Position numbers and translations under genes: made by a program | Shown here: in pieces, positions 1-58,069 of the stretch | Layout of the letters: every line of letters starts with the position of its first letter | Position numbering within the stretch: the stretch's first letter is position 1 | From: a virus | Reading direction: 5' to 3' (one strand) | Virus record (IMG/VR): IMGVR_UViG_3300025131_009739 | Coordinates: 32,001-96,000 of that record | DNA length: 64,000 nt | Notes under the pieces: model-generated | What the model saw: the letters and a program-made list of their open reading frames with translations, nothing else | Told to the model about the DNA's origin: nothing | The model's database searches: none

Positions 1-42
1 CCTCTATAATATAAGTAGTAAAATGTTTAAAAAATAATTTTT

Positions 43-3000
43 TTAATCATCAAATGCAGCTCCAGTATCGGTAATAATGAAATCAAGAGCAATGAATTCA
101 ATAGCTCTTGCAGGCTTCAAAAACACCTTAGCATATAGAATATTTCTATCAACCATCTCTGGCGTTGTCGTAGACTCATCAAGTACTACTTTGAAATCTG
201 TAAGACCAAACCCGGCTTTAATATCATTAAGGAAAGTTTCAACTTGAGAACTGAACTTATTCCAAGTTGAACGCACATTTTGCTCAAACAATGTCAATGC
301 CGCGATTCTAGAAATTTGCTTCTTCGTGTGAATCAACAATCGACGAACATTAATTCTGTCCAAAGCTGATGGAGTGACCTGAAGCGTTTTCTGGCCAAAT
401 ATTACAATTCCTTCCGCTGGGAATGAAGCAATTGGATTAACGTTTGCAGAATAAAGTCTATCTCTATCTTGAGAAGTAAGATGTTGACGAACACCTACAA
501 CATTAAGACCAGAAGCCCCCATAGTCAACCCGCCTCTTGTAAATCCAGCAGGAGCAAACCAAAGTGCTCTTTCTGCTTCACTGAAGGACATTACTCCAAG
601 AGCAACAACAGAAGGAGGCATCCAAAGAATGGCGTTTGAGAGAGAATCTCTAACTTGTACCCATGGATAGTAAGCGCAACCATAGCTGGTGTTCAAATTT
701 CTATTTTTCATGGTTGTTACAGCCTGATCAACGTTGCCGCGGCGAGCTGATTCAGCTGCGGTGCCTTCCGAATCGGCAACATGATCGTTTTTTATATCAA
801 TAATTGCCAGGGCATCCCCGCGATTCTCGCATGTAAGCATCAAATGTGCTGTAAGGGCAGAATCTGTAAGACCAGGCATGGTGGCCAAATTATATTCCAC
901 AGCCTCTGGGTCTTTAAGCGCGTCAATCGCACGATGAACTGTGTAAAATGCATAATTACTGGCTTCAGTTTTGCCCTCTAATAGCGAGTTTCTGAATGGT
1001 TCTTTCTCTGTAATATCTAAACCATCAAAACCATGAGCAAACACTGTAGTAAACCTATTGAATCGTTTAGTTTCAAGAAGGGTGCTTAAACTCCCGCTAC
1101 CATCGCTGTTGGCAGTAATCGATGTTCCAGCAGTACGACTGCCTGAAATATAATGCGCTCCGTGGCCGGTATCGCTACCACTTAAGTCTTCAAGGGTAAA
1201 CACCCACGCATCTTCAGTGTATGTTGAATCCGAATCAGGATTAAGAGCATTTGGTAGTAATCTAAGGACATCCTTAACGCTCGCATCATATTCAGTTGTA
1301 CCGCTTCTGTTTGTATCAGCTCCCCAATAAGCTTGTCGCGGAGAAGACAATCCGCCTTGAATTCCATGATGTCTCAAGGAAACTTTGGGGAAGAAAATCG
1401 AACCGGTGAACCACTTACCGGAACCTGCAACGCTGTGGGATCCGGTTGGGAACAATGCCCATTTCGCAGCTTGCGAGGCCTCAAAATGCCAGTCAATCGC
1501 ACCCGACATTAGAATGCCGTCACCTGCACCCTGAGCGAAAATCTTTGAGGCGTTGAAATGCGTAGTGGTGTCCATGGCTGCTTTGCGAATGTGGCCAAAT
1601 GCGCCACCCGGGGTGCCCCCGGCGCCCTGCTCGGCTGACCCGCTGAAAGACTTCACGCTTTTTGGTCTTTTATGGCCAAAAACTCCAACGGGGATAAACG
1701 TTGGATCCGTTGCGCCACGATCTACATCAACATTCATGTCGACATAAACAAATTTAGACATATTGGGATAGGCGCCAAATCTTTTCCATCTTCTTTCATC
1801 GTCATCCCAAGTTCGAAATTGATTACCAATTTTTCTTGCGACATAAGTGGGGGAATTAGGGTTCAAAGTACAATTTGAAAATATTTCAACAAATTGTGGC
1901 GCGTTATCAGTGTCGTCCAACTTTCGTATAGCAACTGTAAATGAACCATAAGGATCTTGCTTGTTTGTAGCAGGCTTAAGATCTTGAATTGAGACTTTAA
2001 GATTATTCTGGAGCCATTCTCCGCCGTCTAACCCTTTAAGTCTAAAAAGTTTTTGCATATTTTCAGGTTGATAAACGGCGTAGGCGCCCAGATCTTGTGA
2101 AATGAACCACCCGGTGCCGCCATGGGTAACTCCGTTAGAATCCACCATACCTATAAGGTTATTCCCCCATTTGTTGGCGCCGTCGTCTCTGCTATCTAAC
2201 CCAAGAATGATACCCTGGCTTGTGAGACCAGAAGCAAATAATTCCTCTCTATTTTGATCGAACGTTTCGCCCAGGAAATATCCTTTTGTGCTTGTTGTAA
2301 TGGTATCATTAACAAGTGTTGGGTTTGTGTTGAAAACGTTTCTAATATATCTTTCACTATTTCTATTAAAATTGAATGTAACTTTTTCTCCAACATCAGC
2401 CTGTAAAGCAGAACCGCTTCTGATAAGAGCTGTAAATTCATCGCTTCCATTTGAACCCGTGTTAATAAATATTGCCGACCCTGTGAATACAGTAGAGCCG
2501 GAATGTGGTACTGTTCCGGAAAGTTCAATACTCGTTTGATCGTTTAAATACCAAACTGCGGCCAACGAACCCGTTGAGTGACCAGAGGTGAGGCTAGTAT
2601 GTGGACTTGACCACGAATCAAAAAGAAATAATCCATAAGCACCGTTATTGGTGCCAACTGTTTTGGTCTTGGCATTTGCGCCCATGTCCCAACCGGCTTG
2701 ACCGGTGGAGTTTGCCGCGGCTTTAGAATTTTGAACACCAAGAAGCCTCACAACATTTAACGGTTGATTATTCCTCAACCAAGCTTGTGCAGCATATGCA
2801 GCATATGTAGGCGCAGTTTTGTTTCCTTCTCGCCAAACATCTCCTCCTTGGCCGCCAGGAACAGGCTCTCCAAAAATATCAACAAATTCTGAAAAAGAAT
2901 CTACCTGTACTGGCCTCATCGCGGGGCCGCGTTGCAATCGCCCAATAACAACTGGACCAATATCTCCGCCAACATTTGTACGTCGTGTATTATCAATCTC

Positions 3001-3048
3001 ATCAATAAAAACACCTGGTGAAACAAATTTAAATTTCTTAGCTGTCAT
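43..3048 (-). CDS. gp18: Contractile tail sheath protein (T4 gp18-like) with large insertion domains
   Basis: N-terminal FVSPGVFIDEID and C-terminal sheath core (YYPW, WFAPAGFTRG, NVNPIASFP, GQKTLQ, DRINVRRLL, KPARAIEFI); SD-like GAGGAG upstream. Confidence 0.96.
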   Translation of the reverse strand: MTAKKFKFVSPGVFIDEIDNTRRTNVGGDIGPVVIGRLQRGPAMRPVQVDSFSEFVDIFGEPVPGGQGGDVWREGNKTAPTYAAYAAQAWLRNNQPLNVVRLLGVQNSKAAANSTGQAGWDMGANAKTKTVGTNNGAYGLFLFDSWSSPHTSLTSGHSTGSLAAVWYLNDQTSIELSGTVPHSGSTVFTGSAIFINTGSNGSDEFTALIRSGSALQADVGEKVTFNFNRNSERYIRNVFNTNPTLVNDTITTSTKGYFLGETFDQNREELFASGLTSQGIILGLDSRDDGANKWGNNLIGMVDSNGVTHGGTGWFISQDLGAYAVYQPENMQKLFRLKGLDGGEWLQNNLKVSIQDLKPATNKQDPYGSFTVAIRKLDDTDNAPQFVEIFSNCTLNPNSPTYVARKIGNQFRTWDDDERRWKRFGAYPNMSKFVYVDMNVDVDRGATDPTFIPVGVFGHKRPKSVKSFSGSAEQGAGGTPGGAFGHIRKAAMDTTTHFNASKIFAQGAGDGILMSGAIDWHFEASQAAKWALFPTGSHSVAGSGKWFTGSIFFPKVSLRHHGIQGGLSSPRQAYWGADTNRSGTTEYDASVKDVLRLLPNALNPDSDSTYTEDAWVFTLEDLSGSDTGHGAHYISGSRTAGTSITANSDGSGSLSTLLETKRFNRFTTVFAHGFDGLDITEKEPFRNSLLEGKTEASNYAFYTVHRAIDALKDPEAVEYNLATMPGLTDSALTAHLMLTCENRGDALAIIDIKNDHVADSEGTAAESARRGNVDQAVTTMKNRNLNTSYGCAYYPWVQVRDSLSNAILWMPPSVVALGVMSFSEAERALWFAPAGFTRGGLTMGASGLNVVGVRQHLTSQDRDRLYSANVNPIASFPAEGIVIFGQKTLQVTPSALDRINVRRLLIHTKKQISRIAALTLFEQNVRSTWNKFSSQVETFLNDIKAGFGLTDFKVVLDESTTTPEMVDRNILYAKVFLKPARAIEFIALDFIITDTGAAFDD

Positions 3049-3093
3049 GTTTTACGTTCTCCTCTAGGACACAATTGTAAATGAATTCTTTAA

Positions 3094-3101
3094 TAAATAG
3101 T
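3094..3101 (-). promoter_or_regulatory. ACTATTTA motif, putative late promoter (sheath)
   Basis: Recurring intergenic motif upstream of structural genes. Confidence 0.55.
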
Positions 3102-3124
3102 TTGTGGAAGACTGAAAATCCATC

Positions 3125-4488: not shown

Positions 4489-5808
4489 TTATCCTACAAA
4501 TATTGTCATTGGAATTTTTTGTTGAACATTTTTAGTTGATTCAAGTATTGTAGCGTCTGTTTCTACTAGTTTGCTGTAAGTCAGTTCGTCAAGCGTAGTC
4601 TTTAGCTCCTCCCTTAACTTTTCTTGTTCGTCTTTTGCTTGAGATAGTAAGTCGCTCGCATTTAATGTTACAGATTCTCCTGGTATTGGGATGGTTTGAA
4701 ACTTGCCTCTAACCTGACCTAACATTTCCTTTGTTAAAGATAAAGCAAATCTACGAATCCACTGTTTACCAATAGAATTGATACTAGAATATGGTATATT
4801 TGCAAATGGAATTGTGTTCATATTGTTAATACCATCGGTACCCATGGTTCTATCATGATCTGCGTCATCCCATGCATCCTCATCTATTGTAAACTTAAAC
4901 CATATTTTAGTTGGCCCCACTTTGGCTGAAGGTGGGAAAAGTCTAAGTTGATTATTTTTTAATTCATAGGAATAATGCGAATTTCTTGTATAAATTGCGC
5001 TTTCAAATGCTTTAGACTGAAGCTTGTTTTGCCACACTGGAACGATTTGAAACTGAGAATCATCTGCCCATTGGCCATAAGTCTGAAGATTGCCAACTGT
5101 GTTTAGGCCTCCATAATACCCATAAAATCTCCACATTGCATGAGGTGTTTTATAATAAACTTGTCTAATTGTAATCTTTCTCTTGTCTGCTTTATTATAA
5201 AAAGGAAAATAATCATTATCTGAATCAACTGATGCAGAATAAATAATGGCTTGCAAATCATAATCCTGTTGACCTTGAGCAGTGCCAAATGAAGCTGAAT
5301 ATTCAAATTTATCCCCTCCGACTCCAATTTCGTTGCCGACACCTAGGCTAACTCGTTTTTCATATGAGAGTCTAAATCTAGAATATTTTAAAGCTGCCCC
5401 TGCTCCTGCATGTACAAACTCCCCATCTTCTACTTGTCCGTAAGACAGGCTGGAAGAAAGAGGAGAATTGTTCTTTAATTGACCTCGCCAATCGAAAGAG
5501 CCTGTTGTGTCTCCCAAAACACTTCCCAGAACATTCTTTGTTTGATGTATGTTAACAATATAAGAATATTCTAAAACAGATTCTTCATAAGCTGCGTAAA
5601 CATTTGAAGATGATAATTCAATATCTAATACATCTCCACCTAATTTTTTATAGGTATATGCGACTTGGGCTGCAGCGCCTTCTAAGAATTCAGCAGAGCC
5701 AGTGTACATGCCGAAAGGCACTACTGAAGATACATGGCCGGCGGTCCCAGTGGCCGGAAGCCTTACTGCGCTCGTCGTACTTGATGGTGATAAAGTTGGA
5801 ACTGCCAT
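4489..5808 (-). CDS. gp13: Neck / head-tail adaptor protein (gp13-like)
   Basis: KLGGDVLDIEL N-terminal motif and WIRRFALSLTKEMLGQVRGKF...PG..VTLN C-terminal motif; downstream of the MCP. Confidence 0.8.
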   Translation of the reverse strand: MAVPTLSPSSTTSAVRLPATGTAGHVSSVVPFGMYTGSAEFLEGAAAQVAYTYKKLGGDVLDIELSSSNVYAAYEESVLEYSYIVNIHQTKNVLGSVLGDTTGSFDWRGQLKNNSPLSSSLSYGQVEDGEFVHAGAGAALKYSRFRLSYEKRVSLGVGNEIGVGGDKFEYSASFGTAQGQQDYDLQAIIYSASVDSDNDYFPFYNKADKRKITIRQVYYKTPHAMWRFYGYYGGLNTVGNLQTYGQWADDSQFQIVPVWQNKLQSKAFESAIYTRNSHYSYELKNNQLRLFPPSAKVGPTKIWFKFTIDEDAWDDADHDRTMGTDGINNMNTIPFANIPYSSINSIGKQWIRRFALSLTKEMLGQVRGKFQTIPIPGESVTLNASDLLSQAKDEQEKLREELKTTLDELTYSKLVETDATILESTKNVQQKIPMTIFVG

Positions 5809-5831: not shown

Positions 5832-5839
5832 TAAATAGT
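5832..5839 (-). promoter_or_regulatory. ACTATTTA motif, putative late promoter (gp13)
   Basis: Sits just after the MCP terminator, about 24 nt before the gp13 ATG. Confidence 0.6.
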
Positions 5840-5881: not shown

Positions 5882-5910
5882 AAAAAAGCCCCGGGCCGAA
5901 ACCCGGGGCT
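5882..5910 (-). terminator. Rho-independent terminator after the major capsid gene
   Basis: Minus strand AGCCCCGGG-TTTCGG-CCCGGGGCT followed by a T run, about 30 nt after the MCP stop. Confidence 0.92.
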
Positions 5911-5942
5911 TAGATTAGTCTAACTTTTCGAAAAAAGCTATT

Positions 5943-7785: not shown

Positions 7786-8787
7786 TTAAGAGATACCAGC
7801 TAAAGTTTTCCAACGATCTTTAACTGGATCTAGTTTCTTTGTCTCACTGTTACGGCGAGGCAAAGTTGTTGAAGAGCGTTGAATTACTTCGCTTAGTGAT
7901 TTTGGAGTTCGCTTGCGCGAAGCTCCCACAGCGCTTTGAAGCGTTTCATAAATAACTTTTGCTTCTTCAACCGAATCAGCCTTAGACAGAGCTTCGACAA
8001 TTTTATTTCTTTGTCGCTCATTCAGGGAGGTGCCACCCAAAACACGATTCGTGTACAAAAGCTTAGCATTTGAAAGATTTACTTCTTCAAGTTTTTCTTT
8101 CAACTGCATAAGCAAGTTCTTATATTTTTTGTTTTTCTCTAAAAGTTTGTCATTTTTTGAAGTTAAAGATTCAGCTTTTTTGAGATACTCTTTTTCTCGC
8201 GCAAGTGGAAGTGGATTTTCTTCTTCTTCCAGCTCTTCCTCTTCAGCTTCTTGCGCAAGAGCGATGTCCGCATTTTCTTTATCACGTATACTATTCGAAC
8301 CACCTCCAGGAACGCCAGATGGAACTTGTTTGATATCAACTGTCAAGGCTTCAAGAATATCGGCTAAATCTTCTTCGCTCAACTCAATTTCTCCACCTGT
8401 TTCCTCTTCCTCCTCTTCTTCTAATTCTTCAGCCAAATCTTCTCTATCAATTAGTTCATCAGGATTCATGTCCTCGTCTTGAAGATCTTCTGCTAATTTT
8501 GTTAGATCAATGTCCACTACTTCACCAGCCGAAGGACAAGGACATAGATCAGTTCCTTCTGTGGCTGCAGATGGTACATCAGGGGTTTCTTCTTCAGATT
8601 CCTCATCTTCCATGCCTCCCATTTCTTCTTCCGCAAAAGGATCCTCCACTGGCTGTTCCAACAAAGAGCTAACAGCCTCTTTGATCTCGTGAGAATACTT
8701 CTCAACAATCGCTGATTCAGCATTTTTTAACGCTGCTTCTTTCAAAGCTTCGGCATCAATAATAGCCTGTTCTAACATTTCTGACAT
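7786..8787 (-). CDS. Prohead core scaffolding protein (gp22-like)
   Basis: Highly acidic, coiled-coil, immediately upstream of the MCP; NLSNAKLLYTN motif; SD AGGAG. Confidence 0.8.
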   Translation of the reverse strand: MSEMLEQAIIDAEALKEAALKNAESAIVEKYSHEIKEAVSSLLEQPVEDPFAEEEMGGMEDEESEEETPDVPSAATEGTDLCPCPSAGEVVDIDLTKLAEDLQDEDMNPDELIDREDLAEELEEEEEEETGGEIELSEEDLADILEALTVDIKQVPSGVPGGGSNSIRDKENADIALAQEAEEEELEEEENPLPLAREKEYLKKAESLTSKNDKLLEKNKKYKNLLMQLKEKLEEVNLSNAKLLYTNRVLGGTSLNERQRNKIVEALSKADSVEEAKVIYETLQSAVGASRKRTPKSLSEVIQRSSTTLPRRNSETKKLDPVKDRWKTLAGIS

Positions 8788-8817: not shown

Positions 8818-8825
8818 TAAATAGT
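8818..8825 (-). promoter_or_regulatory. ACTATTTA motif, putative late promoter (scaffold-MCP)
   Basis: About 30 nt upstream of the scaffold ATG. Confidence 0.6.
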
Positions 8826-10915: not shown

Positions 10916-11377
10916 CTAAGTTGTCCCATTATCAAGATCAGTTGTAAGGCCAGATCCTGTAAGATCATACATCTCACGTCCTTCAATACCAGTTAACGCT
11001 GCAAATAATTGAAAACCAGACCCAGCATTTAATGCTGTAATATATACTTCTTTACATTTAACAGGAAAGTTCATAGACTCTTCATCGCCATCCAGCTGAA
11101 TATAATGGTGCGCGCTGATCACATTTGCTGAGCCCGGGCCATGGACAAGGCCACCATTTCCAGTTGTTGCAGCGGAACTAGTAGAATTAAAATGTACTCT
11201 TATTTTTGGGGTTGCGCCTGATCCGGATGCAATAACTGTAAAACTATTTGTCACTCTTGGAAATTCAACTTTTACTTCTTGCGCGCCGCCGATATCAGCT
11301 GACCCAGTTATCCATGGTTGGCCAGAAACCATATAAGCAGCTGAATTTCCTAATCCTGATTTATAATTATGTGGCAT
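10916..11377 (-). CDS. Hypothetical virion protein (possible capsid decoration)
   Basis: 153-aa beta-rich ORF in the head module with SD AGGAG; TGS/SGS-rich like other outer virion proteins. Confidence 0.45.
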   Translation of the reverse strand: MPHNYKSGLGNSAAYMVSGQPWITGSADIGGAQEVKVEFPRVTNSFTVIASGSGATPKIRVHFNSTSSAATTGNGGLVHGPGSANVISAHHYIQLDGDEESMNFPVKCKEVYITALNAGSGFQLFAALTGIEGREMYDLTGSGLTTDLDNGTT

Positions 11378-11405: not shown

Positions 11406-11618
11406 TTAATTAGTTTCTTGTTTAGCTTTCAACTTGTCTAAGACAGCTTTTCTTCTCTTTTTAAGCCTTCTCTTAACTTCAGATGGTTTTTCATAATACC
11501 TTCTTTCTCTAGCCTCTTCAATGATTGTTTCTTTCTTTACTTTCTTTGTGAATCTTTTTATTGCTCTCTCAATATTTTCGCCTTTTCGAATAACTGTCTC
11601 TACATTGATTGATTTCAT
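11406..11618 (-). CDS. rpsU: Phage-encoded 30S ribosomal protein bS21
   Basis: GENIERAIKRFTKKVKKETIIEEARERRYYEKPSEVKRR matches the bS21 family pattern; start at ATG 11618 gives 70 aa. Confidence 0.92.
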   Translation of the reverse strand: MKSINVETVIRKGENIERAIKRFTKKVKKETIIEEARERRYYEKPSEVKRRLKKRRKAVLDKLKAKQETN

Positions 11619-14723: not shown

Positions 14724-16662
14724 CCTTTAACTCCAATTCTGCAATCAAATTTCGAACCTGATGGTTGACTTCAAATAGTTTCACTTCCTCATTATAAGTA
14801 GTATCTTTTTCTTCAGTTAGCCCTCTTCCCAGCGTTAATAAGTCTGAGGCCCCGGGGTATATATTTCTCTTTGTATTTTTGCCTGTTTCATAAGCAAATT
14901 GAGATCTCATGTTGCTTCTTCTAGCTGCTCTTTTTCTCCCGTCATCCGTTACGGGTTTATACCACTTTCCTTTTGATTTAGAAGTTGTAGTTTTACCATC
15001 TTTCCTTCTTTTTGCCTTATACCAATCTTCATCACGTTTAGCCGGAGGGGTCAAAAGAGCTGTTTCGGCTTCTTCGGCCGGGGCCGCTTCTCCCCCAAGT
15101 TCTTCACCACCTAATTCCTCACCACCTAATTCCTCACCTCCGAGTTCTCCTCCAAGCTCTCCTCCAAGTTCTCCTCCAAGCTCTGCGCCGCCTAGGCCAG
15201 CTTCGTCTCCAGCAGCTTCTTCCCCGACGCCTTCGAGTGAAGCTTCAAACTTGCGATCATAAAATAGCTCTCGTTGATTCCTCTGGAACTCTTCGTCAGA
15301 AAGATTAAATACATTCTTAGCGACCCAGCGCTTGCTAAAAAATCCTTCTGTAGCAGAATTAGCTGTATCAAACTTTGTTTTCCAGTTCTCAAGCTCTTGA
15401 AGTTCAGCAATTTTAGACGGATTATTCAGACTTAACTTGAAAGAAACCAAATCTTCATTTCTAAAACCTAAAGTAAACAAATGAACAATGCCAATTTTTT
15501 CTAACTCTGAAACGATTGACCTTTGAAGTCTTTGGATTGTCCTTGCAAAACGAATATCTTTTTGGGCAAGAGTTGTTTTGTCTTCCTCCGCTCCTTCTCC
15601 TCTGAAAAGATAAGCCTGCGGGATCTTAAGTGCTGCAAATAATTTATCTTTTAAATATTTGACATCATCAATGTCTCCGGTATAAGAGCCGCCTGCGACT
15701 GTTTCAATCTTTGTTCCCGTTTCACCTCCTCGAACAGGGATAAAATAGTCTTCTTCTATGCTCAAAGGATTATAACGTAAATCAACACGACCAGTACTAG
15801 AATCAACAACTTGGTTACGCTTCATTTGCGTCATGGCCTTTTGCATGAACTGTTCGACATCTTGTGCTGGAATGCTCCCAACATCAATATAAAAAGCTCT
15901 TCTTTCCGGGGCCCTAACAATTCTATATGCCATCATAGCATCTTCCAAAAGAATTAACTGGCGCCAAATTCTTCTTGCCGGCTCCAAAACGCTTGTACCA
16001 TAAGGAGCATACTTATCATTTCCAAGTACACGAAAATGAGCAACTTGCCAATTTTCTAAAGTTAATCCTGCAGAGTTCCATTGATATTGAATATAATTTG
16101 GATTCTCGGGATCTAATCCTTCTAGTCTTTCAACTTCGGAATTGGGGATTCCAATTGCATTTCTAACTCCAAGCTCTTCATCGATATCTATATACAATAT
16201 ATAGTCACCGAACTTACACATTGTTCTGGCCCAGCCAAAAAGATTAAATTCAAGATTAAGAGTTTTGCGATAAAGGCTATCAAGAATATTTTTTATTTCT
16301 TCATTTGGACACCGTATTGTTAAAAGTGATTGTAGTTCGCTCGAAGTTGTCATTTCGTCAGCATACACATCCATAGCAGAAGCTATAATTGGTTCATATT
16401 CCATTTGTTCAAAATCTGCATATCTTTCAATGCGATTTTGATTTGCCATTATGTTAGCGGTAAGATTTTCAAACGGATCATATGATGTCTTTTTGAACTG
16501 TTTGCCGGCGGCCGATTGAAATTTGTATTTATCTAAATTTCTTCTCTTGTCCTTTTTTGGGGATTCCCTACGATAATTAATAATAGGGCCTGATAACAAC
16601 CTTGTTAGTCTTTTAAATAATCCTGATTCTGGATTTCTTGGATTGTTTGTTTTTTTAGCCAT
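14692..16662 (-). CDS. gp20: Portal protein (T4 gp20-like)
   Basis: LLEDAMMAYRIVRAPERRAFYIDVG, EDYFIPVRG, IDDVKYL..KLFAALKIP, DIRFARTIQRLQ; adjacent to TerL. Confidence 0.96.
   Translation of the reverse strand: MAKKTNNPRNPESGLFKRLTRLLSGPIINYRRESPKKDKRRNLDKYKFQSAAGKQFKKTSYDPFENLTANIMANQNRIERYADFEQMEYEPIIASAMDVYADEMTTSSELQSLLTIRCPNEEIKNILDSLYRKTLNLEFNLFGWARTMCKFGDYILYIDIDEELGVRNAIGIPNSEVERLEGLDPENPNYIQYQWNSAGLTLENWQVAHFRVLGNDKYAPYGTSVLEPARRIWRQLILLEDAMMAYRIVRAPERRAFYIDVGSIPAQDVEQFMQKAMTQMKRNQVVDSSTGRVDLRYNPLSIEEDYFIPVRGGETGTKIETVAGGSYTGDIDDVKYLKDKLFAALKIPQAYLFRGEGAEEDKTTLAQKDIRFARTIQRLQRSIVSELEKIGIVHLFTLGFRNEDLVSFKLSLNNPSKIAELQELENWKTKFDTANSATEGFFSKRWVAKNVFNLSDEEFQRNQRELFYDRKFEASLEGVGEEAAGDEAGLGGAELGGELGGELGGELGGEELGGEELGGEELGGEAAPAEEAETALLTPPAKRDEDWYKAKRRKDGKTTTSKSKGKWYKPVTDDGRKRAARRSNMRSQFAYETGKNTKRNIYPGASDLLTLGRGLTEEKDTTYNEEVKLFEVNHQVRNLIAELELKDDETKTQQEA
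15085..15200 (-). repeat. Tandem GG(E)ELG repeats in the portal C-terminal extension
   Basis: Protein GLGGAELGGELGGELGGELGGEELGGEELGGEELGGE; 12- and 15-bp imperfect DNA repeats. Confidence 0.85.
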
Positions 16663-22190: not shown

Positions 22191-22238
22191 TAAATAGTAT
22201 TATATATAAATAGTATTATATATAAATAGTATTATATA
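22191..22238. repeat. Three exact tandem copies of the 16-bp unit TAAATAGTATTATATA
   Basis: Units at 22191, 22207 and 22223; each contains ACTATTTA on the minus strand. Confidence 0.92.
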
Positions 22239-22247
22239 TAAGTATCT

Positions 22248-26720: not shown

Positions 26721-26756
26721 AATAATTTCTCCTTTTTAATATTATATTATCTAGTT

Positions 26757-30161: not shown

Positions 30162-30190
30162 ACTATAACACAAAGTATTTTGCTTGTCAA
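30162..30190 (-). promoter_or_regulatory. Near-consensus sigma70 promoter for the SbcCD fusion gene
   Basis: TTGACA-17 nt-TATAGT with extended -10 TG; AGGAG SD downstream before ATG 30135. Confidence 0.75.
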
Positions 30191-30870: not shown

Positions 30871-31808
30871 TGCAACTCTCCTAAAGCTTCGTATAATAAG
30901 TAGTCATCAGAACCGCATAATGACGCTTCATTTTTTCGTTTCAAAAACTCATCTTTTGTCATCGACCCAATGTCGTCATAGCCGGCTGTATTTATTTTAT
31001 ATACTTCAATTCCATAATTCAATAAGTCTTTTATTATCTTCTTTGATTTGTTCTCGGCATCAACATCTAAACCAATATAAATTGGTGTATCATTCTTTAC
31101 GATCATCTGAAACAACTTTGAGTTCTCGCGCAAAGTAGAACCAAGAATTGGAACAGCATTTGGGCCAGCAATTATTGCATCAAAGATGCCTTCAACAATC
31201 ACAAGATCTTGATCGAGGTCTAGGTAAAGTTCATTAAATATTATATCTTTTGATACTGGAGGGTTGAGATATTTTTTCCATGCACCATTAAATGCTCTTG
31301 CAACAAAATAGTTTACATAACCTTCTTCATCAAAAGATGGAATGATAACTCTGTTATTATATTTTCCATTCATGCAACATCCAATTTTCCAACGAAGAAT
31401 CTCTTTCTTTGTTATTCCTCTATTCTTCAAATAATTTAAAGCAGGCGTCGTTACCAAAGGAAGGTTTTCATTTGCAAGAGATATAAATTCTTTTGGCAAG
31501 TCAAATCTTTGTATTTGTTCAGTTTCATCGTCTTCTGAAAATATATCATCAAATTTTGTTACATCTTCTCGACCATTTAATTTGTCCCATTGTTGAAGTG
31601 TGCGAAAATCACCATACTTTCTTACGAGACGCCGAAGAGAGCGACCATAATAATCACAAATCCAACACTTAAAAGCATCTTTCTCTAAATTAATAGAGAA
31701 TTTTCGTTTATGATGTTTGCATTTTGGACAATAAAAAAGGTGTTCATCGTTTGAATGATGAAATTTTCCAAAAATACTTTTTAGGAGTTGGAGCTTCTCT
31801 CCTTCCAT
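30867..31808 (-). CDS. DNA primase (zinc finger + TOPRIM)
   Basis: CPKC...CWIC zinc finger, YLKNRGI, RVIIP, YFVAR, KYLNP, VEGIFDA, GLDVD. Confidence 0.9.
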   Translation of the reverse strand: MEGEKLQLLKSIFGKFHHSNDEHLFYCPKCKHHKRKFSINLEKDAFKCWICDYYGRSLRRLVRKYGDFRTLQQWDKLNGREDVTKFDDIFSEDDETEQIQRFDLPKEFISLANENLPLVTTPALNYLKNRGITKKEILRWKIGCCMNGKYNNRVIIPSFDEEGYVNYFVARAFNGAWKKYLNPPVSKDIIFNELYLDLDQDLVIVEGIFDAIIAGPNAVPILGSTLRENSKLFQMIVKNDTPIYIGLDVDAENKSKKIIKDLLNYGIEVYKINTAGYDDIGSMTKDEFLKRKNEASLCGSDDYLLYEALGELQ

Positions 31809-32320
31809 AAATTATAACCTGCTCTCGCGATAATTAAACTGTCTGCCCGATCATAAGAACCAGGCTTGGGATTACCTTGTTTTGTATATTCTACCACAAA
31901 ATTTGGTTCGTTGTCAAGAATATATTGAAGAACGACCTGTTTTGCCTTTTCTCCACGAGGAATTTTAATACCATTTGATTTTCTAGCAGTTGATGCTCCA
32001 ATGTATTCTGGTTCAATTCCTACTACATCTAAACATATGTAAGATACTATACCATTAAACTTCGCTAATGTCAATAAAGTTTTTGCTGAAGAAAAACCAG
32101 GTCTAAAAGCTTGCAGAGACTGTTCAACAAAAATATGTTCGATGCGAAATTTGATAGTTAAATCTAATAATTTGCTTTTAACAAATTCTGCTTTTGTATA
32201 CGGACTTGGAAAACGGTTTTTGTTTCTCATATCCCAAGCTTCACAATATAATACTTTGCCAGTAACATCAAGAATAGTCACACCAGTTATTGATGTTGAA
32301 ATGTCTAAGCCTAAGATCAC
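31781..32320 (-). CDS. RuvC-like Holliday junction resolvase
   Basis: ILGLDISTSITG, IFVEQ, DRADSLIIA catalytic pattern; GTG start. Confidence 0.85.
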   Translation of the reverse strand: MILGLDISTSITGVTILDVTGKVLYCEAWDMRNKNRFPSPYTKAEFVKSKLLDLTIKFRIEHIFVEQSLQAFRPGFSSAKTLLTLAKFNGIVSYICLDVVGIEPEYIGASTARKSNGIKIPRGEKAKQVVLQYILDNEPNFVVEYTKQGNPKPGSYDRADSLIIARAGYNLWKERSSNS

Positions 32321-35821: not shown

Positions 35822-35829
35822 TAAGTAGT
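35822..35829 (-). promoter_or_regulatory. ACTACTTA motif, putative late promoter
   Basis: About 23 nt upstream of ATG 35799; the same octamer occurs at 12..19 and 14795..14802. Confidence 0.5.
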
Positions 35830-38850: not shown

Positions 38851-38882
38851 TTTGTTTCTCTTTATTATAACTATTCATTTTA

Positions 38883-43945: not shown

Positions 43946-44000
43946 TTTGTATAAATTCCAACCTTATAATAATTACTCATATTTAATAAAATATTCTTCA

Positions 44001-53000: not shown

Positions 53001-54101
53001 ATCCACTGAAGCGGACAGTTTACCGTATCCAACGGCATCTTCCCAATCTGTGCCTTCAGCACCAGATAGTTCAATTATTAATGCCCCTAATGATGCATTA
53101 ATATTTCCACTTACATAACTAGCGCTAGTCCCAACGATGGATTCTGTGTTTAGAACTCCATCAATATATAATCGAACTTTAGTCTGGCCTTCGTCGGTAC
53201 CACTTCCGGTTGGACTAAATGTAAAAGCATAATGATGCCAATTCCTATCAGCAACAGAAGCAGTAGTTAAGCCGGTGCCAATTGAAGCGCTATAAAATCC
53301 GCCGCCGCTTTCCAGGACGGTGCGAGCATCATCATATAAAGCACCTGATAAATATGTTACATAAAATGGAGATTCAGTTTGTCTCGTTGTGGCGGATAAT
53401 TCAATTCTGAAACGACCGTAATATGTACTAGAAGATGCATGATCTGTTGTAACTGCATCAAAAATAACTTCTTTCTTTGTTTTAGAAGGGTCGAACGAAT
53501 GTTTCCATAACCAAAATTCAACTGTATTCCCATCTTCTCCGCCAAATTTTAAATTGGATTCTCTATTTTTACTATAATCATAAATATTAGATTTTCCATC
53601 AGCCGATGGAAATAGCCTAGACATTGAGGAATAATTTGAATCTTTGTGAGGACCTCCTTTGATATAAATGTATTCTGGTGTTTCGGAAAGGCCGTATTCG
53701 TTTTCTGCTGTCATGACGCCCTTCGTCGCGGATAACGTTCCCCAGCCATTAGAAGAAAAAACGGCATATCCTGTTGAACGTGGATAAACATTATCGAAGA
53801 CGTATTGATCTAAAAAGGAAGAACTGTTGTGCCACTGAGTCTTTTCTTTTAAAGAGCCATCATACGGATATGTTTTGTAAATTCTTTTAATCGACTCAGC
53901 ATAATATTCTTCAGCAGAACCAAATCTAACAAAGTTCTCTGGTTTCGAAAAATCTATATAAGGTATAAAACGATCTTTTTCTTTTATTTTTTCTCGTATA
54001 AAATCAGCTGATTCTATTTCATTTCCCAAGCCATCTAAAGATGCTGACGAAGCGATTCTACTAATAGGCTCTTGTTTATTAAAATAGTCTTTGGTACTCA
54101 T
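44001..54101 (-). CDS. Giant 3366-aa baseplate/virion protein with LamG (concanavalin A-like) domain(s)
   Basis: TVEFWL...WHHYAFTF...LYIDG...VDEFRFW LamG pattern; YIYKSKGTEKSFRNAIRCFGI resembles the wedge gp7/P2-I KGT motif; follows gp25/gp6. Confidence 0.7.
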   Translation of the reverse strand: MSTKDYFNKQEPISRIASSASLDGLGNEIESADFIREKIKEKDRFIPYIDFSKPENFVRFGSAEEYYAESIKRIYKTYPYDGSLKEKTQWHNSSSFLDQYVFDNVYPRSTGYAVFSSNGWGTLSATKGVMTAENEYGLSETPEYIYIKGGPHKDSNYSSMSRLFPSADGKSNIYDYSKNRESNLKFGGEDGNTVEFWLWKHSFDPSKTKKEVIFDAVTTDHASSSTYYGRFRIELSATTRQTESPFYVTYLSGALYDDARTVLESGGGFYSASIGTGLTTASVADRNWHHYAFTFSPTGSGTDEGQTKVRLYIDGVLNTESIVGTSASYVSGNINASLGALIIELSGAEGTDWEDAVGYGKLSASVDEFRFWKAERSPKAVGRHWFTQVHGGTNTDDSNTQLGVYYKFNEGITVTSSFDSKVLDYSGRISSGSWEGYLSTSRNTGSAIVSASASTREFEDPILYSFHTNVTSTLDTYSKLGKNFDYTNNASIYNSFPEWITSEDRYVGSNLLKLSQIMASYFDTLAQQIKALPSIKNQSYVSYPSSFLHTASGPTGSGEYKPLPFANRLLESAGLTTPEIFLDADIISKLSARDEKKLFEDDLYDTKNLIYQNLYNNLVYIYKSKGTEKSFRNAIRCFGIDDELIKINVYANNITYELKDSYNYTVQKKNFIDFHKPDHNTAVVYQATASSNSNSVSFISGSEEFLSGSARTLEAEIIFPRRETVEKPGQFILAPSLTSSLFGTKGAVSIPDSAQSAQVEASWPVSDTGDLRVYAVKDTNDILSTNAYFKLTSSIMAINITSSVFYDVYENEKWNFAVRVRPSTYPMATRVSGTNNAYIHGSGTIEFCGVNASNNAIRNEFYITKSIGIPYDSVPASRVNHWIGSPKRVYAGALRTNFTGALEEYTDVKISSVRYWLDYLPDEVIKVHALDAGNAGVLHPYDYAYLFNAPTASLCYIPRIETLALDWDFDRVTGSDARGEFVVEDISSGSTALTGRYGPVGNILNAQHTGIGYGFLVSNAKVVDKNYLPSARQRLPESVASSDMIEIRNRDDINFTRETRPITHFIAVEKSMYQTISEEMLKMFATIKDFNSLIGDPVNRYRQSYKRMEKLRQLFFERVESVSDLDRYVEFYKWLDSSIDKIIEQFFPISSDTSESIRNMVESHVLERNKYWSKFPTLEMKHDIPTGQILAINELLYPWKQGHAPIEFYLAADSNATAFDVLDLGSSQPAYPGAGVVHGDSFYITISDAAGGGDGASSGNKVHIVVYNSVPGGDPPANAIRIAGAGNDAVATTYLIAAINGTDAPGFDGDSIKYGSEITGGTTGLKGITAILGSSDTKITLVVDQAGPHGRTIVLANGAVGGMVQNSPFITYPSSATENINCLWWKDRLGRDGQTHLGSTSDAGLNSSKESIRTIATTIVSSSGPTYRSNPYVYRKLTKPYKFSAKVDVELHGGINFAPSKRLDFYKSLLTPGSDNYIHIKSSDFVNPACSDLLDLDKKTRQAFNVYLPYDEQNKGEIYAPFSLFSSSFTTGSVTAISGVGGPTNIHVDAYGTCKETPMQGPFTEKYVGGMPHRHVFFTTTGAFGTASPSRREEAWSVVLPAYSEIGYATELKLVPVDHVVQAVADQDAPGWSAARSWIARDGYAKRPVNIKNIQQTIGHTTTGSTVIGNYTKNYEVVQTSGRSTNPRYFAETKGAISGSVVSTLVSGVYDFALPDRGRHASVFVEKFSAPGGPEVMSRGFLDIVAEEFSVYNSLNNRNLSVRQPLQTLLTRHAGTGGYDSSLKEPSASYHKVHRNRRAKIVFSSSGHIVAPKFAGTASSYDNWYVTRVIPRSDLQYAWITASVHHVTGVTTEPLSLGVTPADPARPKADFTVLGYQKPAYMRSGSEEHNAYNAWNASTDIVFVSASDFGVAWYNAGAVRTWGVPFAEAIQGDIGGFHPTDFVGLNTIIYEPISSSTNTLGWPNDTGAPGNNDSLQHPHGAYLGWTAYHESPTYINGTDNATSHGRGFVTNYDPIGASEANTAGLAHNPRRDPEAFNALMLHRNGPYHYPSWKQIRTGEHPVARYHKKKNLLDFSIGPVASERSPTKLEKLFTPADAQTELRYGTNGYTDNILQELKKVGAKSPVRKETITPVTNKYKPIEHTLFDISVDDVEQQRIVLARGGKANNVFTFRHTLGNNMNYFPIGQGELDQKLGIINDPDQVIYDEITNEINPVFQQEKSFDLLNLNYREIVFPKEENAYLGKIRGRQHYTESSGLTHQGYDRRDYRTFWRTRPEHRLRTDALALNSMGNTIRESMWNDDTTGYIFKYGQIDRNKGIGPSEHDFQNGLEMIPPCLSMWPLDASAESGTLCGELFSNPYASMTASNAIVANTLKTDSVHYSLRSVPTASQTYLFQNKYMSMTPIANFETFIPPKYLHIIQHDSWDADQGISGAHFKPHYSASLLSGKSPFYDSYDQWAVDVRTMGQGYSILPEFKISDHMDYYIDNGFAATNKKFLSLVGALHTASSDTPISTGNLPFYKLYSHSDFMKFVELIGNDYQKDVKGRAKEFTLKCKAVKKLLPYNGFYPVLRCVQLGSMFSQSYGPHLTSSIAFAGKTPQVHPQEQLQSLLQPWFAPGIMYNTIKSGIAVDWPHWTGSLPNAIGFAGMGYLTQTGSDDVGTEGLEYEKIHNIRFPFESLIEPHTYLPVSHSGDHGVGSEIPLIHPPGLAGEITDLTQGKHALWTGDYTPNYSMAMHNFLGEIPRFFLDKGKFQSFTSTPGRFQMLSGTTYFMDVTLRKSGKKYSMSGSAVDKPPGHNPYEDMIMFEGPDFPFKAGRSSGDLAFNKQDMQSGSARGIHYGPTCQTHNYPLDPITSLVYVAAQTQDPAFAPYTPPYFYGKSVARLAFSPHKHRLLLSAVDLHSSHGELAEFTIEEVIAGAQVETTYDPNWRESWNLLKDYGSGSFQIGEEGQGNESLAFKSKMRVASSINLFGRTTVPEITYNPITGQAIEAKASKGDESLDAWVISPKFETPILNFSGNIDTNLGYSTRGMWYGYGVEPTGSQGIYMGLRESHPTAILKAMLGGAGENALHGIGTQPSDETRLGHRQTGSLYQVLGFKEPSGLVGPDRKLGQIADNKIISEAVVAIPIRSNYDEGTSPFFPITRRHIDYAQLLQRSPETNLDDLAKRAAAFGSSVPSKAITEMVNKMSKYYLPPHMNFIKNRSIDPFAMFIFEFHHCLKKQDLIDIWQNLMPKIATEAQKDEASITLDLAASWDFLNLNTMPKDVRWMVFKVKKKAEQSYFNVTEDTKDDKRFKFEFGDEKLKKPDYNYNWPYDFFSLVELVQVEAEYKLRGAIGDDVATLSDVAGNVNLPWLPPIPPQKPPPGSEVPGT

Positions 54102-54103
54102 GG

Positions 54104-55762
54104 TTATTCAACTCTAAATTTAAATATTTCTGGTTGTTCGCGATAAGCACCATTTGTGTAATATGCAAACTTTATTCCGTAGGTGTAATCGGGTTCTAAC
54201 ATGTTCATTTTTAAATCAAAATAATTTCCATTTGAATCGTAAGAAAGCTGAGTATAGGGCATATTACTTGGAGGAGGGAAAGTTATAGTACTACTTCCAG
54301 TTCCATATGTGATTATATTTAAGTCATCAGTTACTCTAAAGATTTTATAATATGCTTTTTCAATAACGACAGGGTCAATTGTCGTAACAACTGTTGTATA
54401 GACATTTGGATTCCAATACCTGTCGCGAACGAAAACTCTGAAGCGGGCTTCTTCATCTCTAAAATATGTTGATTTAAGATTAGTAATTTTAGTAACATAT
54501 GATGGATTTGGGTTAAAAGTTTCTGCAGATGATGAAAATTGTTTCGTTTTTATAGAGCCGGTGTAATATACTGTAGCATCGTCGATATCTACACCAGCAG
54601 AACCACTAAACCATCGATCATAAATAATACTAGCGCTTGTGTTGAGTGCGAAACTTGCTGAATATATCCCAGTTGATACATATCCTCCTGTTACAGCTTG
54701 AGAATTTGCCGGAGGATCATCACCAAGAGTGCTATGTTGTCTCAAATTATACGGGGCATCCGTATTCATTAGTTCTCCATGGGAAGCTGACGTGTAAAAC
54801 TGCACAAATATAACGGGATGGGCCTGGCCTACATCTGGTATATTTCTAAGCTGTCCGCGAACATAATTATATAAATATATTGTATTCAAATTCCCAGATG
54901 CATTTACAAGAGAACTGCTTACATAACAACTGCCCCTATCATCTTTAATTGTCGAATCCCACCTTGCTTCGATGCAAGGCCTTTTAAAGAAATATTCTGA
55001 TGTTCTAGAAAAGAATTTTTTGGTATAATAAGAATTTTTTGTTCCCGCAGCATTGTGTAGTACAGAACCAGTATCGGCTCCTGTTGAACTAGAAAAATAT
55101 CCCTCTTGGCTGGAGGTAAAATATACTCCTATCCCATAATTATGTTTGCCGTCGTTATTGTGGTTTGCTCCGCCAACAAGCCAATGCTCCACCAAACCAG
55201 TTATATCTACGTCTAAATCTTCATCTCCATTAGGAAAACTAGCAGTATAATGTACATGACCAGAAGCAGTATGATATGAGCCTCCTTTATTTGCCCATAG
55301 ATCTAGACCGGAAGATGCGGTACTGGCATTAATCCAATTGGTACCAACAAAATCTCTAGTTATATCGGTATAGCCTTCCATATCAAGACCAGTGCCTTCA
55401 TCCCATGATTGGGAAATAGGCAATATAGTTAAAATTGCACTTTGTGGAAGAGTAAATGCATGCTTTGCATTGAACATTCTTGCATAAAAACTTACGCTAC
55501 CACTTGCTGGAATTTCGCCATTATCTCGAGAAGAAGAAATAGTAGAAACAGGAAATTTAATTAATATTCTTGACAACTCAACAGAGCCAGAAGATGCGTC
55601 ACTATATTGGCCGCCGCCGCCTTGAGCGTAAATTGAAAATGTTTCTAAAACATCAGAAGCCCCCATATTAGAGCCGGTGCCTCTGTGTGCCTCTGAAAGG
55701 CCTGGGCCAAAAGCATTTGTTATAGTAGTATCTGCGTCCGCTGTGAATCTTCTAATGCCCAT
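54104..55762 (-). CDS. Virion structural protein with DNRLRE-like N-terminal domain
   Basis: ADADTTI...SRILIKF...SQSWDEGTG...DVDITGLVEHW pattern; located between gp6 and the giant gene. Confidence 0.55.
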   Translation of the reverse strand: MGIRRFTADADTTITNAFGPGLSEAHRGTGSNMGASDVLETFSIYAQGGGGQYSDASSGSVELSRILIKFPVSTISSSRDNGEIPASGSVSFYARMFNAKHAFTLPQSAILTILPISQSWDEGTGLDMEGYTDITRDFVGTNWINASTASSGLDLWANKGGSYHTASGHVHYTASFPNGDEDLDVDITGLVEHWLVGGANHNNDGKHNYGIGVYFTSSQEGYFSSSTGADTGSVLHNAAGTKNSYYTKKFFSRTSEYFFKRPCIEARWDSTIKDDRGSCYVSSSLVNASGNLNTIYLYNYVRGQLRNIPDVGQAHPVIFVQFYTSASHGELMNTDAPYNLRQHSTLGDDPPANSQAVTGGYVSTGIYSASFALNTSASIIYDRWFSGSAGVDIDDATVYYTGSIKTKQFSSSAETFNPNPSYVTKITNLKSTYFRDEEARFRVFVRDRYWNPNVYTTVVTTIDPVVIEKAYYKIFRVTDDLNIITYGTGSSTITFPPPSNMPYTQLSYDSNGNYFDLKMNMLEPDYTYGIKFAYYTNGAYREQPEIFKFRVE

Positions 55763-57579
55763 TATTTTACAGTACCTCTGATATCTTGATCTGGATATTT
55801 CATTTCAAATATTACATCTTCATGAGCCTGCAAAAGTCTTCCATCTATAGTTGTGTTGTTTTCAATATTGTATCCAAACCCAGAGTACAATCCCCCACTT
55901 TTATTTACTATTTTAACATCTAATGTATCGACAACTCCTGGAACTGAGTTTAAAACTTTAAATAAATTTGTAATACCGATAGATTGGCCGACATCAAATT
56001 CCACGTCCAGTGCAGATTTTAATTGTGATACGGCAATAGACAAAACATCATATTTGTTAATATCTTGACTTCCCAATATTCTAAATTCAACTCCAAAATT
56101 AACAATTTTTGCATCAAGAATATCAATTGTATCATTTATCATCTTATGGCTATTCAGCCAAGTTTTTAAATTTGTTTTCACTATCGTGTTCGTTTGAACC
56201 AAATTATTATTTCTATCTTGAGATACAACGTACATATTTAAATTTCTTTTAAAAGAATCATGATCTTTTACAATAGAACATTTCTTGATTGCGCCATATG
56301 GCGCAGGCATTGAGTAAGCAGCAATTATATAATCTTGTTTTGTGACAGCTCTATTCTGTGCAGAAAAAGAATCTTTAACTCTCTGTCTTAATTCTTCCAA
56401 CTCTGGTAATGTAACTGCGCCCAGCACCCTTTCTTCATTCGTCACCTCCAAACTGTCAATAACTTCAAAAACTGTGTTAGGATTTAATAATGCTCTATCT
56501 TCAAAATTTAGTTCTTTGCTTATTATGGTGTTTAATGAGCCAACCGAAGTATTAACAGTGTCGTTATTATTTGTTCTGTATACAATAGTCAATGTAGTGT
56601 TAGACGGCGCGATGCCGAACTTATCTGTCGCTATTAAATTGCCAGGATCTAGAGTATTATCCGTAACATGGTTTCTACCGTGAACTTTTAATATTAATTC
56701 GCTTGGATCTGCCACAGAATCATTGAATATTTCTGAATCTGAACCATAGCCAAACTGCACATAAGTTCCATCTATTTCATGTTCAACTATAAATCTTCTT
56801 GGCACTGGCACTGGTTTAAGAATATTATCTGCTTGTTCTCGATCACCTCGATTAATAACTGGAACATAAATCATATTTTGAGATAAATAATCAACTTCAA
56901 AGTACGAATGACCTTCTGAATCAAATATAGAAACAATTTCAGTTATATTTGTGTCTGCTAATTTAAGTCTTAAAAATTTCTGAAAATCTCCAACGGGAAC
57001 TAGTTCTTGCTGCAATCTTCCTGAGATTACTTGGCCGTGCGCTTTAATCGCATAATGTGTTGGGGCGCCGGTGGAGGAATTAACTCTTGCCACAACTATT
57101 TCATTTTTGGGGCTGCCAAAATCAACATCCCCGCTCAATGTAAATATTGCTCCGTCCTGTGAAGATAGTTCCGCTCCCCTTTTTAACATTGGCATATATT
57201 TTGTATCGGGGCTAAGACCAACAGAAGTTGCCGGAACCATCAAATAAAAACTTACAATTCCTGTGGCAGAAAAATTTCTTTGAAACTTATAGCCTAAATT
57301 TTTACCATGCCTTATCACATTGTTGTATTCGAGCGACGTGTCAATAAAAGACTCATTTGCCTGATAGTCTAAATAAAATGATAAAATATCTCCAACATAA
57401 GCTACAGTATCAAGCATCAAAGCTCCAAATGAGGCGTCATTAAAATCTTTATAACTATCTGAATAATACCTTTTAGCGTATTCTACTAAATCATTTTTAA
57501 TAGATTGATAATCTCTACTAGTGTACTTAATTGAGGTTAGTTGTCTAGACTTGTCAGATCTTGATATTTTTTTAGCCAT
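55762..57579 (-). CDS. gp6: Baseplate wedge subunit (T4 gp6 / baseplate J-like)
   Basis: YTSRDYQSIKNDL, DFNDASFG..LD..AYVGDILSFYLD, VQFGYG, QNRAVTKQDY. Confidence 0.9.
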   Translation of the reverse strand: MAKKISRSDKSRQLTSIKYTSRDYQSIKNDLVEYAKRYYSDSYKDFNDASFGALMLDTVAYVGDILSFYLDYQANESFIDTSLEYNNVIRHGKNLGYKFQRNFSATGIVSFYLMVPATSVGLSPDTKYMPMLKRGAELSSQDGAIFTLSGDVDFGSPKNEIVVARVNSSTGAPTHYAIKAHGQVISGRLQQELVPVGDFQKFLRLKLADTNITEIVSIFDSEGHSYFEVDYLSQNMIYVPVINRGDREQADNILKPVPVPRRFIVEHEIDGTYVQFGYGSDSEIFNDSVADPSELILKVHGRNHVTDNTLDPGNLIATDKFGIAPSNTTLTIVYRTNNNDTVNTSVGSLNTIISKELNFEDRALLNPNTVFEVIDSLEVTNEERVLGAVTLPELEELRQRVKDSFSAQNRAVTKQDYIIAAYSMPAPYGAIKKCSIVKDHDSFKRNLNMYVVSQDRNNNLVQTNTIVKTNLKTWLNSHKMINDTIDILDAKIVNFGVEFRILGSQDINKYDVLSIAVSQLKSALDVEFDVGQSIGITNLFKVLNSVPGVVDTLDVKIVNKSGGLYSGFGYNIENNTTIDGRLLQAHEDVIFEMKYPDQDIRGTVK

Positions 57580-57609
57580 TTATACCAATCCTTTTAGAAA
57601 TAATTAGTA

Positions 57610-57996
57610 TCAAGTAGCAGATATTTCTAGAAGATCGACAACATTAAGATCTGGCACTCTATATTTTATTTTCATGCTCAAGGTGCCCGGCTCAGCCTCT
57701 ACGTGATCTTCAAAACCAATAAAATTAATTTCAAGAAGTTCTACAAAAGGCATATATATCTCTAATTGTTTTTCAATTCTATCAGAAATACCCCCTCTTA
57801 CGGAAACAGTATCTTGTTCAAATAAATATTTTACTAGGCCAACTCCAAAGTGTGGATCCATCATTCTTTCGCCAGGTATAGTTAATAACAAATGTTTAAA
57901 ATTTTGCTTAACCATTTCTATATAAGTTTTAGTAACTTTATATGCTCCATATTCACTATCTAAAACTAACGGTAATTTTGGTGATAATCCGGCCAT
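57610..57996 (-). CDS. gp25: Baseplate wedge protein (gp25/GPW-like)
   Basis: VKQNFKHLLLTIPGERMMDPHFGVGL..YLFE; SD AGGAG. Confidence 0.92.
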   Translation of the reverse strand: MAGLSPKLPLVLDSEYGAYKVTKTYIEMVKQNFKHLLLTIPGERMMDPHFGVGLVKYLFEQDTVSVRGGISDRIEKQLEIYMPFVELLEINFIGFEDHVEAEPGTLSMKIKYRVPDLNVVDLLEISAT

Positions 57997-58069
57997 TTTG
58001 GACTCCTATTATTATATAGTTTTAGAGATTCTAAATCTAAAAATATTTTTAAATTTATATATCGAATCT

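Follow-up and report, generated by a model that had tools for sequence, protein, structure and literature searches.

ACTAnTTA, a probable late promoter box of an uncultured marine T4-related myovirus

Genes of the contig and placement of the box

The DNA studied here, in the following called the window, is a stretch of 64,000 nucleotides (nt) of the IMG/VR virus record IMGVR_UViG_3300025131_009739 and comprises the bases 32,001-96,000 of a linear viral contig of 165,872 bp, which according to CheckV is ~48% complete. Upstream of its virion genes the window harbors repeated copies of a short sequence, ACTANWTA, and we present the data that make this element, in its prevailing form ACTAnTTA, a probable -10-type late promoter box. 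The contig has a G+C content of 38%, and 163 out of 177 genes, which were crudely called as longest open reading frames (ORFs), are located on the minus strand. PHROG matches assigned it to a T4-type myovirus. Besides the genes for the tail sheath and the major capsid protein (Table 1), these matches named within the window the prohead protease, portal, large terminase, an SbcCD-like nuclease, primase, and gp6-like and gp25-like baseplate wedge proteins. The nearest relatives of the capsid protein (41-52% identity) belong to uncultured huge phages, the Flavobacterium phage immuto, the Microcystis phage Mel-JY01 and the Rhodothermus phage RM378. Unless a contig or record is mentioned, positions refer to the window.

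All 13 exact copies of the motif reported by the initial annotation of this DNA, as well as its two copies with one mismatch (38868 and 43970), were recovered on the minus strand. At 12 of the exact copies, the end of the box was separated from the start codon by 13-45 nt, the exception being the copy at 14795 (71 nt). Sites with the sequence ACTAnTTA precede the tube, sheath, adaptor-like, capsid-operon, gp6-like and gp25-like genes and, in addition, several unannotated genes of the virion region. Almost no Pfam matches were obtained with 21 unannotated proteins encoded downstream of boxes. The box at 11407 overlaps just one doubtful ORF of 80 amino acids (aa) starting with GTG, and the three boxes at 22191-22241, which begin at 22191, 22207 and 22223, form a perfect tandem repeat of 16 nt with 3.2 units. 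Seven further matches on the minus strand, absent from the initial annotation (13178, 16198, 18977, 21220, 30897, 34901 and 63507) all reside inside ORFs, and the sequence ACTAAATA likewise occurs in the window inside ORFs only. One of the seven, the copy at 30897, may be a real site.

By mere number the motif is not enriched. On both strands of the whole window, ACTANWTA was observed 24 times, compared with 20.33±4.85 expected matches, and 23 of 100 shuffles reached this count. Twenty of the 24 matches, however, belong to the gene strand. No ORF covers 1,561 nt of the window, and on the gene strand of this DNA 11 matches were counted, while the mean of 3,360 patterns of the same composition was 0.68±1.12; among all these patterns with the same letters, ACTANWTA ranked first. 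The same test extended to the whole contig yielded 17 matches versus 2.25±1.88. When the non-coding gene strand of the contig (5,706 nt) was subjected to 2,000 dinucleotide shuffles, 2.65±1.54 matches were expected and none of the shuffles gave 17, whereas the opposite strand of these non-coding segments disclosed a single match. The signal of the motif is therefore one of strand and position and not of overall count. In this form the enrichment over background, which had been anticipated by the initial annotation, was borne out.

A second class of promoters was recognized on the same contig. Counting of k-mers on its non-coding gene strand brought out four signals, namely the Shine-Dalgarno sequence AGGAG, CTTGACA (8 versus 0.2 expected), TATAAT, and CTATTTA/ACTACTTA. 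Near-perfect sites of the type TTGACA-N17-TATAAT are situated in front of the genes for dUTPase, SSB, SbcCD and primase and of small ORFs at 155-165 kb. At none of the late-box sites was TTGACA found to be followed by a spacer of 16-18 nt and TATAAT; the 26748 site possesses a TTGACA at a greater distance upstream. The two classes are thus divided by gene function, early and replication genes on the one hand and late genes on the other, as is familiar from T4.

Table 1. Features of the window (coordinates in window positions unless marked contig)
Feature	Position	Strand	Context
Putative late box ACTACTTA	12..19	minus	26 nt before tail tube gene (phrog_4542; contig 31473-31985, just outside the window)
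Tail sheath gene	43-3048	minus	PHROG match
Putative late box ACTATTTA	3094..3101	minus	45 nt before tail sheath gene (43-3048)
Putative late box ACTATTTA	5832..5839	minus	23 nt before 439-aa head-tail adaptor-like gene (4489-5808)
Intrinsic terminator hairpin	5886..5911	minus	11 pairs, 8 of them G-C, T tail; after major capsid gene, 47 nt upstream of box 5832-5839
Major capsid protein gene	5943-7760	minus	PHROG match
Putative late box ACTATTTA	8818..8825	minus	30 nt before 333-aa gene (7786-8787), followed by major capsid gene (5943-7760)
Putative late box ACTAATTA	11407..11414	minus	29 nt before 153-aa head-module gene (10916-11377)
ACTACTTA copy, function uncertain	14795..14802	minus	in 3' part of portal ORF, 71 nt before 273-aa gene (13902-14723)
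Three tandem putative late boxes ACTATTTA	22191..22241	minus	13, 29 and 45 nt before 894-aa gene (19493-22177)
Variant box ACTAGATA	26748..26755	minus	27 nt before 67-aa gene (26517-26720)
Host-type promoter TTGACA-17-TATAGT, not a late box	30162..30190	minus	before SbcCD-like nuclease gene (26980-30135)
ACTACTTA copy, function uncertain	30897..30904	minus	in last codons of primase ORF, 26 nt before 82-aa gene (30622-30870)
Two host-type promoters, TTGACA-18-TAGAAT and TTGACA-17-TATAGT	31888..32074	minus	upstream of primase gene
Putative late box ACTACTTA	35822..35829	minus	22 nt before 347-aa gene (34756-35799)
One-mismatch box AATAGTTA	38868..38875	minus	17 nt before 994-aa gene (35866-38850)
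One-mismatch box AGTAATTA	43970..43977	minus	24 nt before 367-aa gene (42842-43945)
Putative late box ACTAATTA	57601..57608	minus	21 nt before baseplate wedge (gp6-like) gene (55762-57579)
Variant box ACTATATA	58013..58020	minus	16 nt before baseplate wedge (gp25-like) gene (57610-57996)

Some other features of the contig were noticed as well. Outside the window, between the contig positions 155,000 and 165,100, about ten near-perfect TTGACA-N17-TATAAT sites precede small ORFs, and many of them have in common a downstream leader that ends with AATCGAGAAAGAG; this part of the contig looks like a region of early-gene cassettes. It also contains copies of ACTACTTA at contig 156,653 and 162,946, which lie 105-109 nt before genes, in a segment that is repeated and directly followed by early TTGACA promoters, and which probably are not late promoters. 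The tail/baseplate region comprises two giant ORFs on the minus strand (3,366 and 3,036 aa; window 44001-54101 and window 58070 to contig 99,180, respectively), for neither of which a PHROG match was obtained. Two intergenic sequences located outside the window look like the 3' half of tRNAs (contig ~12,700-12,980, ...GGTTCAAGTCC...CACCA; contig ~138,005-138,072, ...GTTCGATTCCC...CCACCA).

Composition and conservation of the box

To describe the letters of the box, 101 sites situated at most 80 nt from a start were reduced to 63 non-redundant sites. Their consensus begins with ACTA, continues with T (37 sites), A (18), C (7) or G (1) at position 5 and with T (59) or A (4) at position 6, and ends with TA. 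Six letters were demanded by the search pattern and only the positions 5 and 6 were measured in this set; at the former, T is preferred to A and A to C, while the latter is almost always T, the A present in the box at 26748 being the rare form.

Upstream of the box a T-tract was identified at a distance of ~13 bp, with T at -14 in 50, at -13 in 43 and at -15 in 37 of the 63 sites. Just upstream of 21 of these sites a hairpin of -6 kcal/mol or stronger was detected. The hairpins are terminators of the preceding operons, the clearest of which (5911-5886) follows the capsid gene. We rejected the terminator tail as the sole cause of the T-tract, because the tract is kept at the same position in sites devoid of any hairpin (T at -14 in 15 out of 19) and because TT at -15/-14 is invariant across nine lineages of sheath promoters. 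The initial annotation had stated that the sites lack an obvious -35 element. This was right in respect of TTGACA and has to be amended in respect of the T-tract, which is position-specific and precedes the box by 13-16 nt. Within 40 nt downstream of the box, the 63 sites did not reveal any conserved element apart from a scarcity of C just behind it.

Relatives of the phage were collected by a search with the sheath protein, which gave 31 IMG/VR loci (40-86% identity) with a total of 299,840 nt. Twenty-eight of them include the start of the sheath gene (L019, L035 and L043 lack it and were dropped) and two of these were too short upstream. In each of the 26 usable loci, ACTA(T/C/A)TTA is located 26-63 nt before the sheath ATG. 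The view of the initial annotation that the motif is a gene-oriented element preceding virion genes was supported, and the element is conserved among the relatives. Among the nine sheath-promoter lineages mentioned above, defined by flanks less than 70% alike, the seven fixed letters of the box are 100% identical, whereas the flanks show 40-44% identity. Taking the 31 loci together, we counted 132 matches on the gene strand versus 20 on the opposite strand, and 108 of the 132 fall into non-ORF DNA. In the virion region (41.6 kb) of the cultured Flavobacterium phage immuto, ACTATTTA occurs six times in intergenic positions compared with 0.19 expected copies; one of the boxes of this phage stands before a gp20-like gene.

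Different words were observed in two other phages. In the Microcystis phage Mel-JY01 (L049, record 5,041-46,615), (A)TATTTAT is found before virion genes with a T-run ~12-14 nt upstream; on the gene strand, 11 intergenic copies are followed by a called gene, ten of them at a distance of 80 nt or less from its start. With A in place of C, this word appears to be a sister form of the box. In the uncultured phage LR756508 (L050, record 151,952-193,517), the most enriched intergenic 8-mer of the gene strand is (T)AACTTAA(A), with 7 copies versus 0.24 expected. ACTAnTTA is absent from this part of the LR756508 record, although a homologue of the sigma factor described below is present (31.5% identity). 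A further observation concerns the sequence AATGAT, which the more distant sheath lineages also keep ~13-18 nt behind the beginning of the box (window ~3075-3090; sheath spacers L025-L044). It may be a mark of the start region or an element specific to the sheath gene.

A sigma factor of the gp55 family

A divergent sigma factor similar to gp55 of T4 had been expected by the initial annotation elsewhere in the genome, and a gene of this kind was indeed found. The PHROG family of T4 gp55, phrog_234, matched a single place in the contig (E 2.8e-4 in the contig search), an ORF of 237 aa on the minus strand (contig 104,517-105,230), which is separated from the end of the window by ~8.5 kb. The same family was matched by 54 out of 73 diverse relatives of the protein, with a best E of 6.3e-13, and nine of the 73 gave a match to Pfam Sigma70_r2. 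The homologue in phage immuto is encoded at 78,222-78,827 of its genome. An hhalign comparison of the profile built from diverse relatives (A2) with T4 gp55 resulted in a probability of 51.7% (E 1.5e-4, 106 columns). The AlphaFold model of the protein reached a predicted local distance difference test (pLDDT) score of 79, and its best structural match among 48,161 chains was T4 gp55 (7d7d_F; Z 10.6, root-mean-square deviation 2.5 Å, 98 residues).

When folded alone, the C-terminal 100 residues attained a pLDDT of 95. Their best structural matches are to sigma region 4 (3mzy, Z 6.8), sigma factors making up at least 14 of the top 20 matches, with all Z values below 8. Pfam Sigma70_r4 was not matched by any of the 73 relatives. 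The contig did not disclose a match to phrog_12791 ('sigma factor for late transcription'). Nor did the contig, immuto, Mel-JY01 or LR756508 give a match to the gp33 family (phrog_254) at E ≤ 1, gp33 being a small, poorly conserved protein and the contig ~48% complete; with the same reservation as to completeness, no PHROG match to a sliding clamp was obtained among the ORFs of the contig.

The sigma family is very large. At 50% clustering it comprises 1,695 representatives (E ≤ 0.001), and at 90% more than 8,000 clusters, many of which originate from ocean surveys. Some of the clusters carry the name 'specialized sigma subunit' given by the Joint Genome Institute, and the closest members are 65-93% identical. 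Directly downstream of the sigma gene lies a gene of 364 aa (contig 103,386-104,480, minus strand), which revealed a sub-threshold match to Pfam Tubulin/FtsZ (E 3.1e-06, 28 bits with a cutoff of 33) and is preceded by TCTATTTA, a late box with one mismatch.

Interpretation and comparison with known systems

We think that this uncultured marine myovirus, a relative of T4, and its clade use ACTAnTTA as their late promoter box of the -10 type and that this box is read by the gp55-family sigma factor of the phage; we would give this explanation a probability of roughly three in four. The host RNA polymerase would transcribe early and replication genes from promoters of the ordinary type TTGACA-N17-TATAAT. 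At a later stage of infection, the 237-aa sigma factor would take the place of the host sigma on the core enzyme and guide the polymerase to the box, which stands 13-63 nt ahead of the leading gene in each virion operon and often just behind the terminator of the preceding one. Judged from sequence and predicted structure, the product of contig 104,517-105,230 is most likely the protein that reads the box, and transcription would start a few nucleotides downstream. The upstream T-tract and the region-4-like C-terminal domain of the sigma factor may each contribute to this recognition.

Several results weigh against this explanation. Relatives whose sigma factor is about as distant as that of immuto seem to use other words, TATTTAT in Mel-JY01 and AACTTAA in LR756508. 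The seven copies inside ORFs of the window and the two inside the early-promoter repeats of the contig (156,653 and 162,946) show that a site is not specified by the 8-mer alone. Three sites are only 7-13 nt away from the called start, too near to accommodate a Shine-Dalgarno leader, so that either the start has been miscalled or the transcript is nearly leaderless. As to the sigma factor, phrog_234 is the only PHROG match of the 237-aa protein, and with an E of 0.018 it is weak by itself. The shallow profile of close relatives (A1) aligned to T4 gp55 with an hhalign probability of 0.4%, and a comparison of this profile with PDB sequences gave nothing at E ≤ 10. Moreover, the structural match to gp55 is tied within 1 Z with Staphylococcus aureus SigB (Z 10.3), so that the fold indicates a sigma domain 2 and not specifically gp55. 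A Foldseek search of the PDB with the full model did not yield any match at E ≤ 0.001, nearly all of the weak matches being sigma factors.

Among the other explanations we took into account, the least improbable, though still unlikely, is that the box serves as binding site of a phage activator or repressor (of the MotA type or a late regulator) while the host primary sigma remains in use, or that it is a weak host-type -10 in need of an activator. The box does contain TAnTTA, which loosely resembles a -10, and some sites run on into TATAAT; together with the fixed T-tract 13-16 nt upstream this would be a two-part layout like that of an activator box and a -10, and canonical promoters are clearly used by the host for the early genes. 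Downstream of the box there is, however, no second conserved element that could act as the true -10; the letters with the highest conservation (A, C, T, A) differ from the host -10, and the phage encodes a sigma factor of the gp55 family. The same box is also kept in immuto, whose host is a Flavobacterium (strain LMO8). The phylum of this bacterium uses a different promoter consensus.

It is still less probable that the motif functions at the RNA level and not as a DNA promoter, either in processing or as a 5'-untranslated element of polycistronic late transcripts. Its strand specificity, its location between the genes of one long co-oriented array and its position upstream of Shine-Dalgarno sequences would fit such a role, but an intrinsic terminator immediately precedes many of the sites, at which one would expect little read-through RNA, the box aligns with the known late box of the T4 family, and no conserved pairing partner was seen, the flanks being just 40-44% identical. 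That ACTANWTA is only a chance AT-rich word devoid of function is hardly credible. This notion can draw on the count for both strands of the whole window, 24 versus 20.3, which is at expectation; it is contradicted by the first rank among 3,360 patterns in non-coding DNA of the gene strand, by the 2,000 shuffles, none of which reached the observed count, and by the invariance of the box in diverged orthologous spacers.

In the promoter and phage papers covered, to the scope of which subscription journals and supplements did not belong, we did not find a description of this box. Among the papers listed for ACTATTTA, the one on a phage, Felix O1, contains it just in a terminator table, and for CTATTTA the late-promoter papers listed contained nothing on phages of this kind. 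Judged by title or abstract, none of the papers listed deals with promoters of vB_FspM_immuto. The Far-T4 paper PMC4360716 nowhere mentions gp55, sigma, promoter or gp33, and the only promoter paper on Far-T4 phages that emerged concerns phage ΦM9. A late-promoter prediction based on cyanophages failed for pelagimyophages, as reported in PMC7029224. Because the sigma family behind the box is very large, this simple box could mark late operons in thousands of uncultured phage genomes. Since the cultured phage immuto carries the same box, the system is amenable to testing.

According to PMC2988020 and PMC1524935, the late promoter of T4 consists of TATAAATA at -13 to -6 without a -35 element and is read by gp55 with the co-activator gp33 and the gp45 sliding clamp. 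The former source describes gp55 and gp33 as a split sigma factor, in which gp33 stands in place of domain 4; the latter gives CTAAATA as the late consensus of phage Aeh1, with the C at -12 preceded by A or G, and reports a markedly diverged gp55. The initial annotation had called the box unlike that of T4 and akin to its reverse complement. We arrived at another alignment, in which the box and the late boxes of the T4 family (TATAAATA; CTAAATA in Aeh1) are read on the same strand. The reverse-complement reading was rejected, as the same-strand frame fits, with AC at -13/-12 as in Aeh1. Most likely, the box is a sequence variant of the known late switch of the T4 family.

In strict terms of sequence it is identical neither to TATAAATA nor to the Aeh1 consensus. 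Four out of eight letters agree with T4 (nnTAnnTA) and five out of seven fixed positions with Aeh1. Two hallmarks of a late promoter of the T4 family are present, a gene-oriented box directly upstream of virion genes and an encoded, presumably cognate sigma factor of the gp55 family, and the distances of 13-63 nt to the start codons are compatible with a T4-like position of the box at -13 to -6. As in T4, a single short box without a -35 of the TTGACA type stands directly before virion genes, early genes carry host-type promoters, and domain 2 of the phage sigma matches gp55 best. Unlike T4, the box has AC instead of TA at -13/-12, T instead of A at -8 and a degenerate position -9, and in this clade it is accompanied by a fixed T-tract upstream. 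With Aeh1 it shares the C where T4 has A and the common frame CTA...TA; the two differ in the center, which is AAA in Aeh1 and (T/A/C)T here, with T at position 6 in 59 of 63 sites. By its capsid protein neighbors, the phage studied here appears to be much more distant from T4 than Aeh1 is.

The sigma factor differs from T4 gp55 (185 aa) by its length of 237 aa and its C-terminal domain similar to region 4. In the succession of a predicted sigma domain 2 and a helix-turn-helix domain, it resembles the two-domain (region 2 and region 4) sigma factors of the extracytoplasmic function (ECF) type or group 4. Other than in these, Sigma70_r4 was not matched in 73 relatives, the Z values for region 4 all stay below 8, and a -35/-10 pair with a spacing of 16-17 bp is missing; the sole upstream signal, in contrast to ECF/group 4 promoters, is the T-tract ~12 bp from the box. 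As a tentative extension, which we regard as distinctly more doubtful than the reading of ACTAnTTA as a late promoter, the T4-related phages of this marine and freshwater clade might possess an undivided late sigma, which would combine a domain 2 of the gp55 type with a fused DNA-binding domain similar to region 4 and would read the T-tract (~26-29 bp upstream of the assumed start) and ACTAnTTA without gp33. The split sigma of T4 would then be derived and the undivided form closer to the ancestor. Compared with T4, the box would exemplify how the late switch has drifted both in the letters of its box and in the architecture of its sigma factor, while its logic has been kept.

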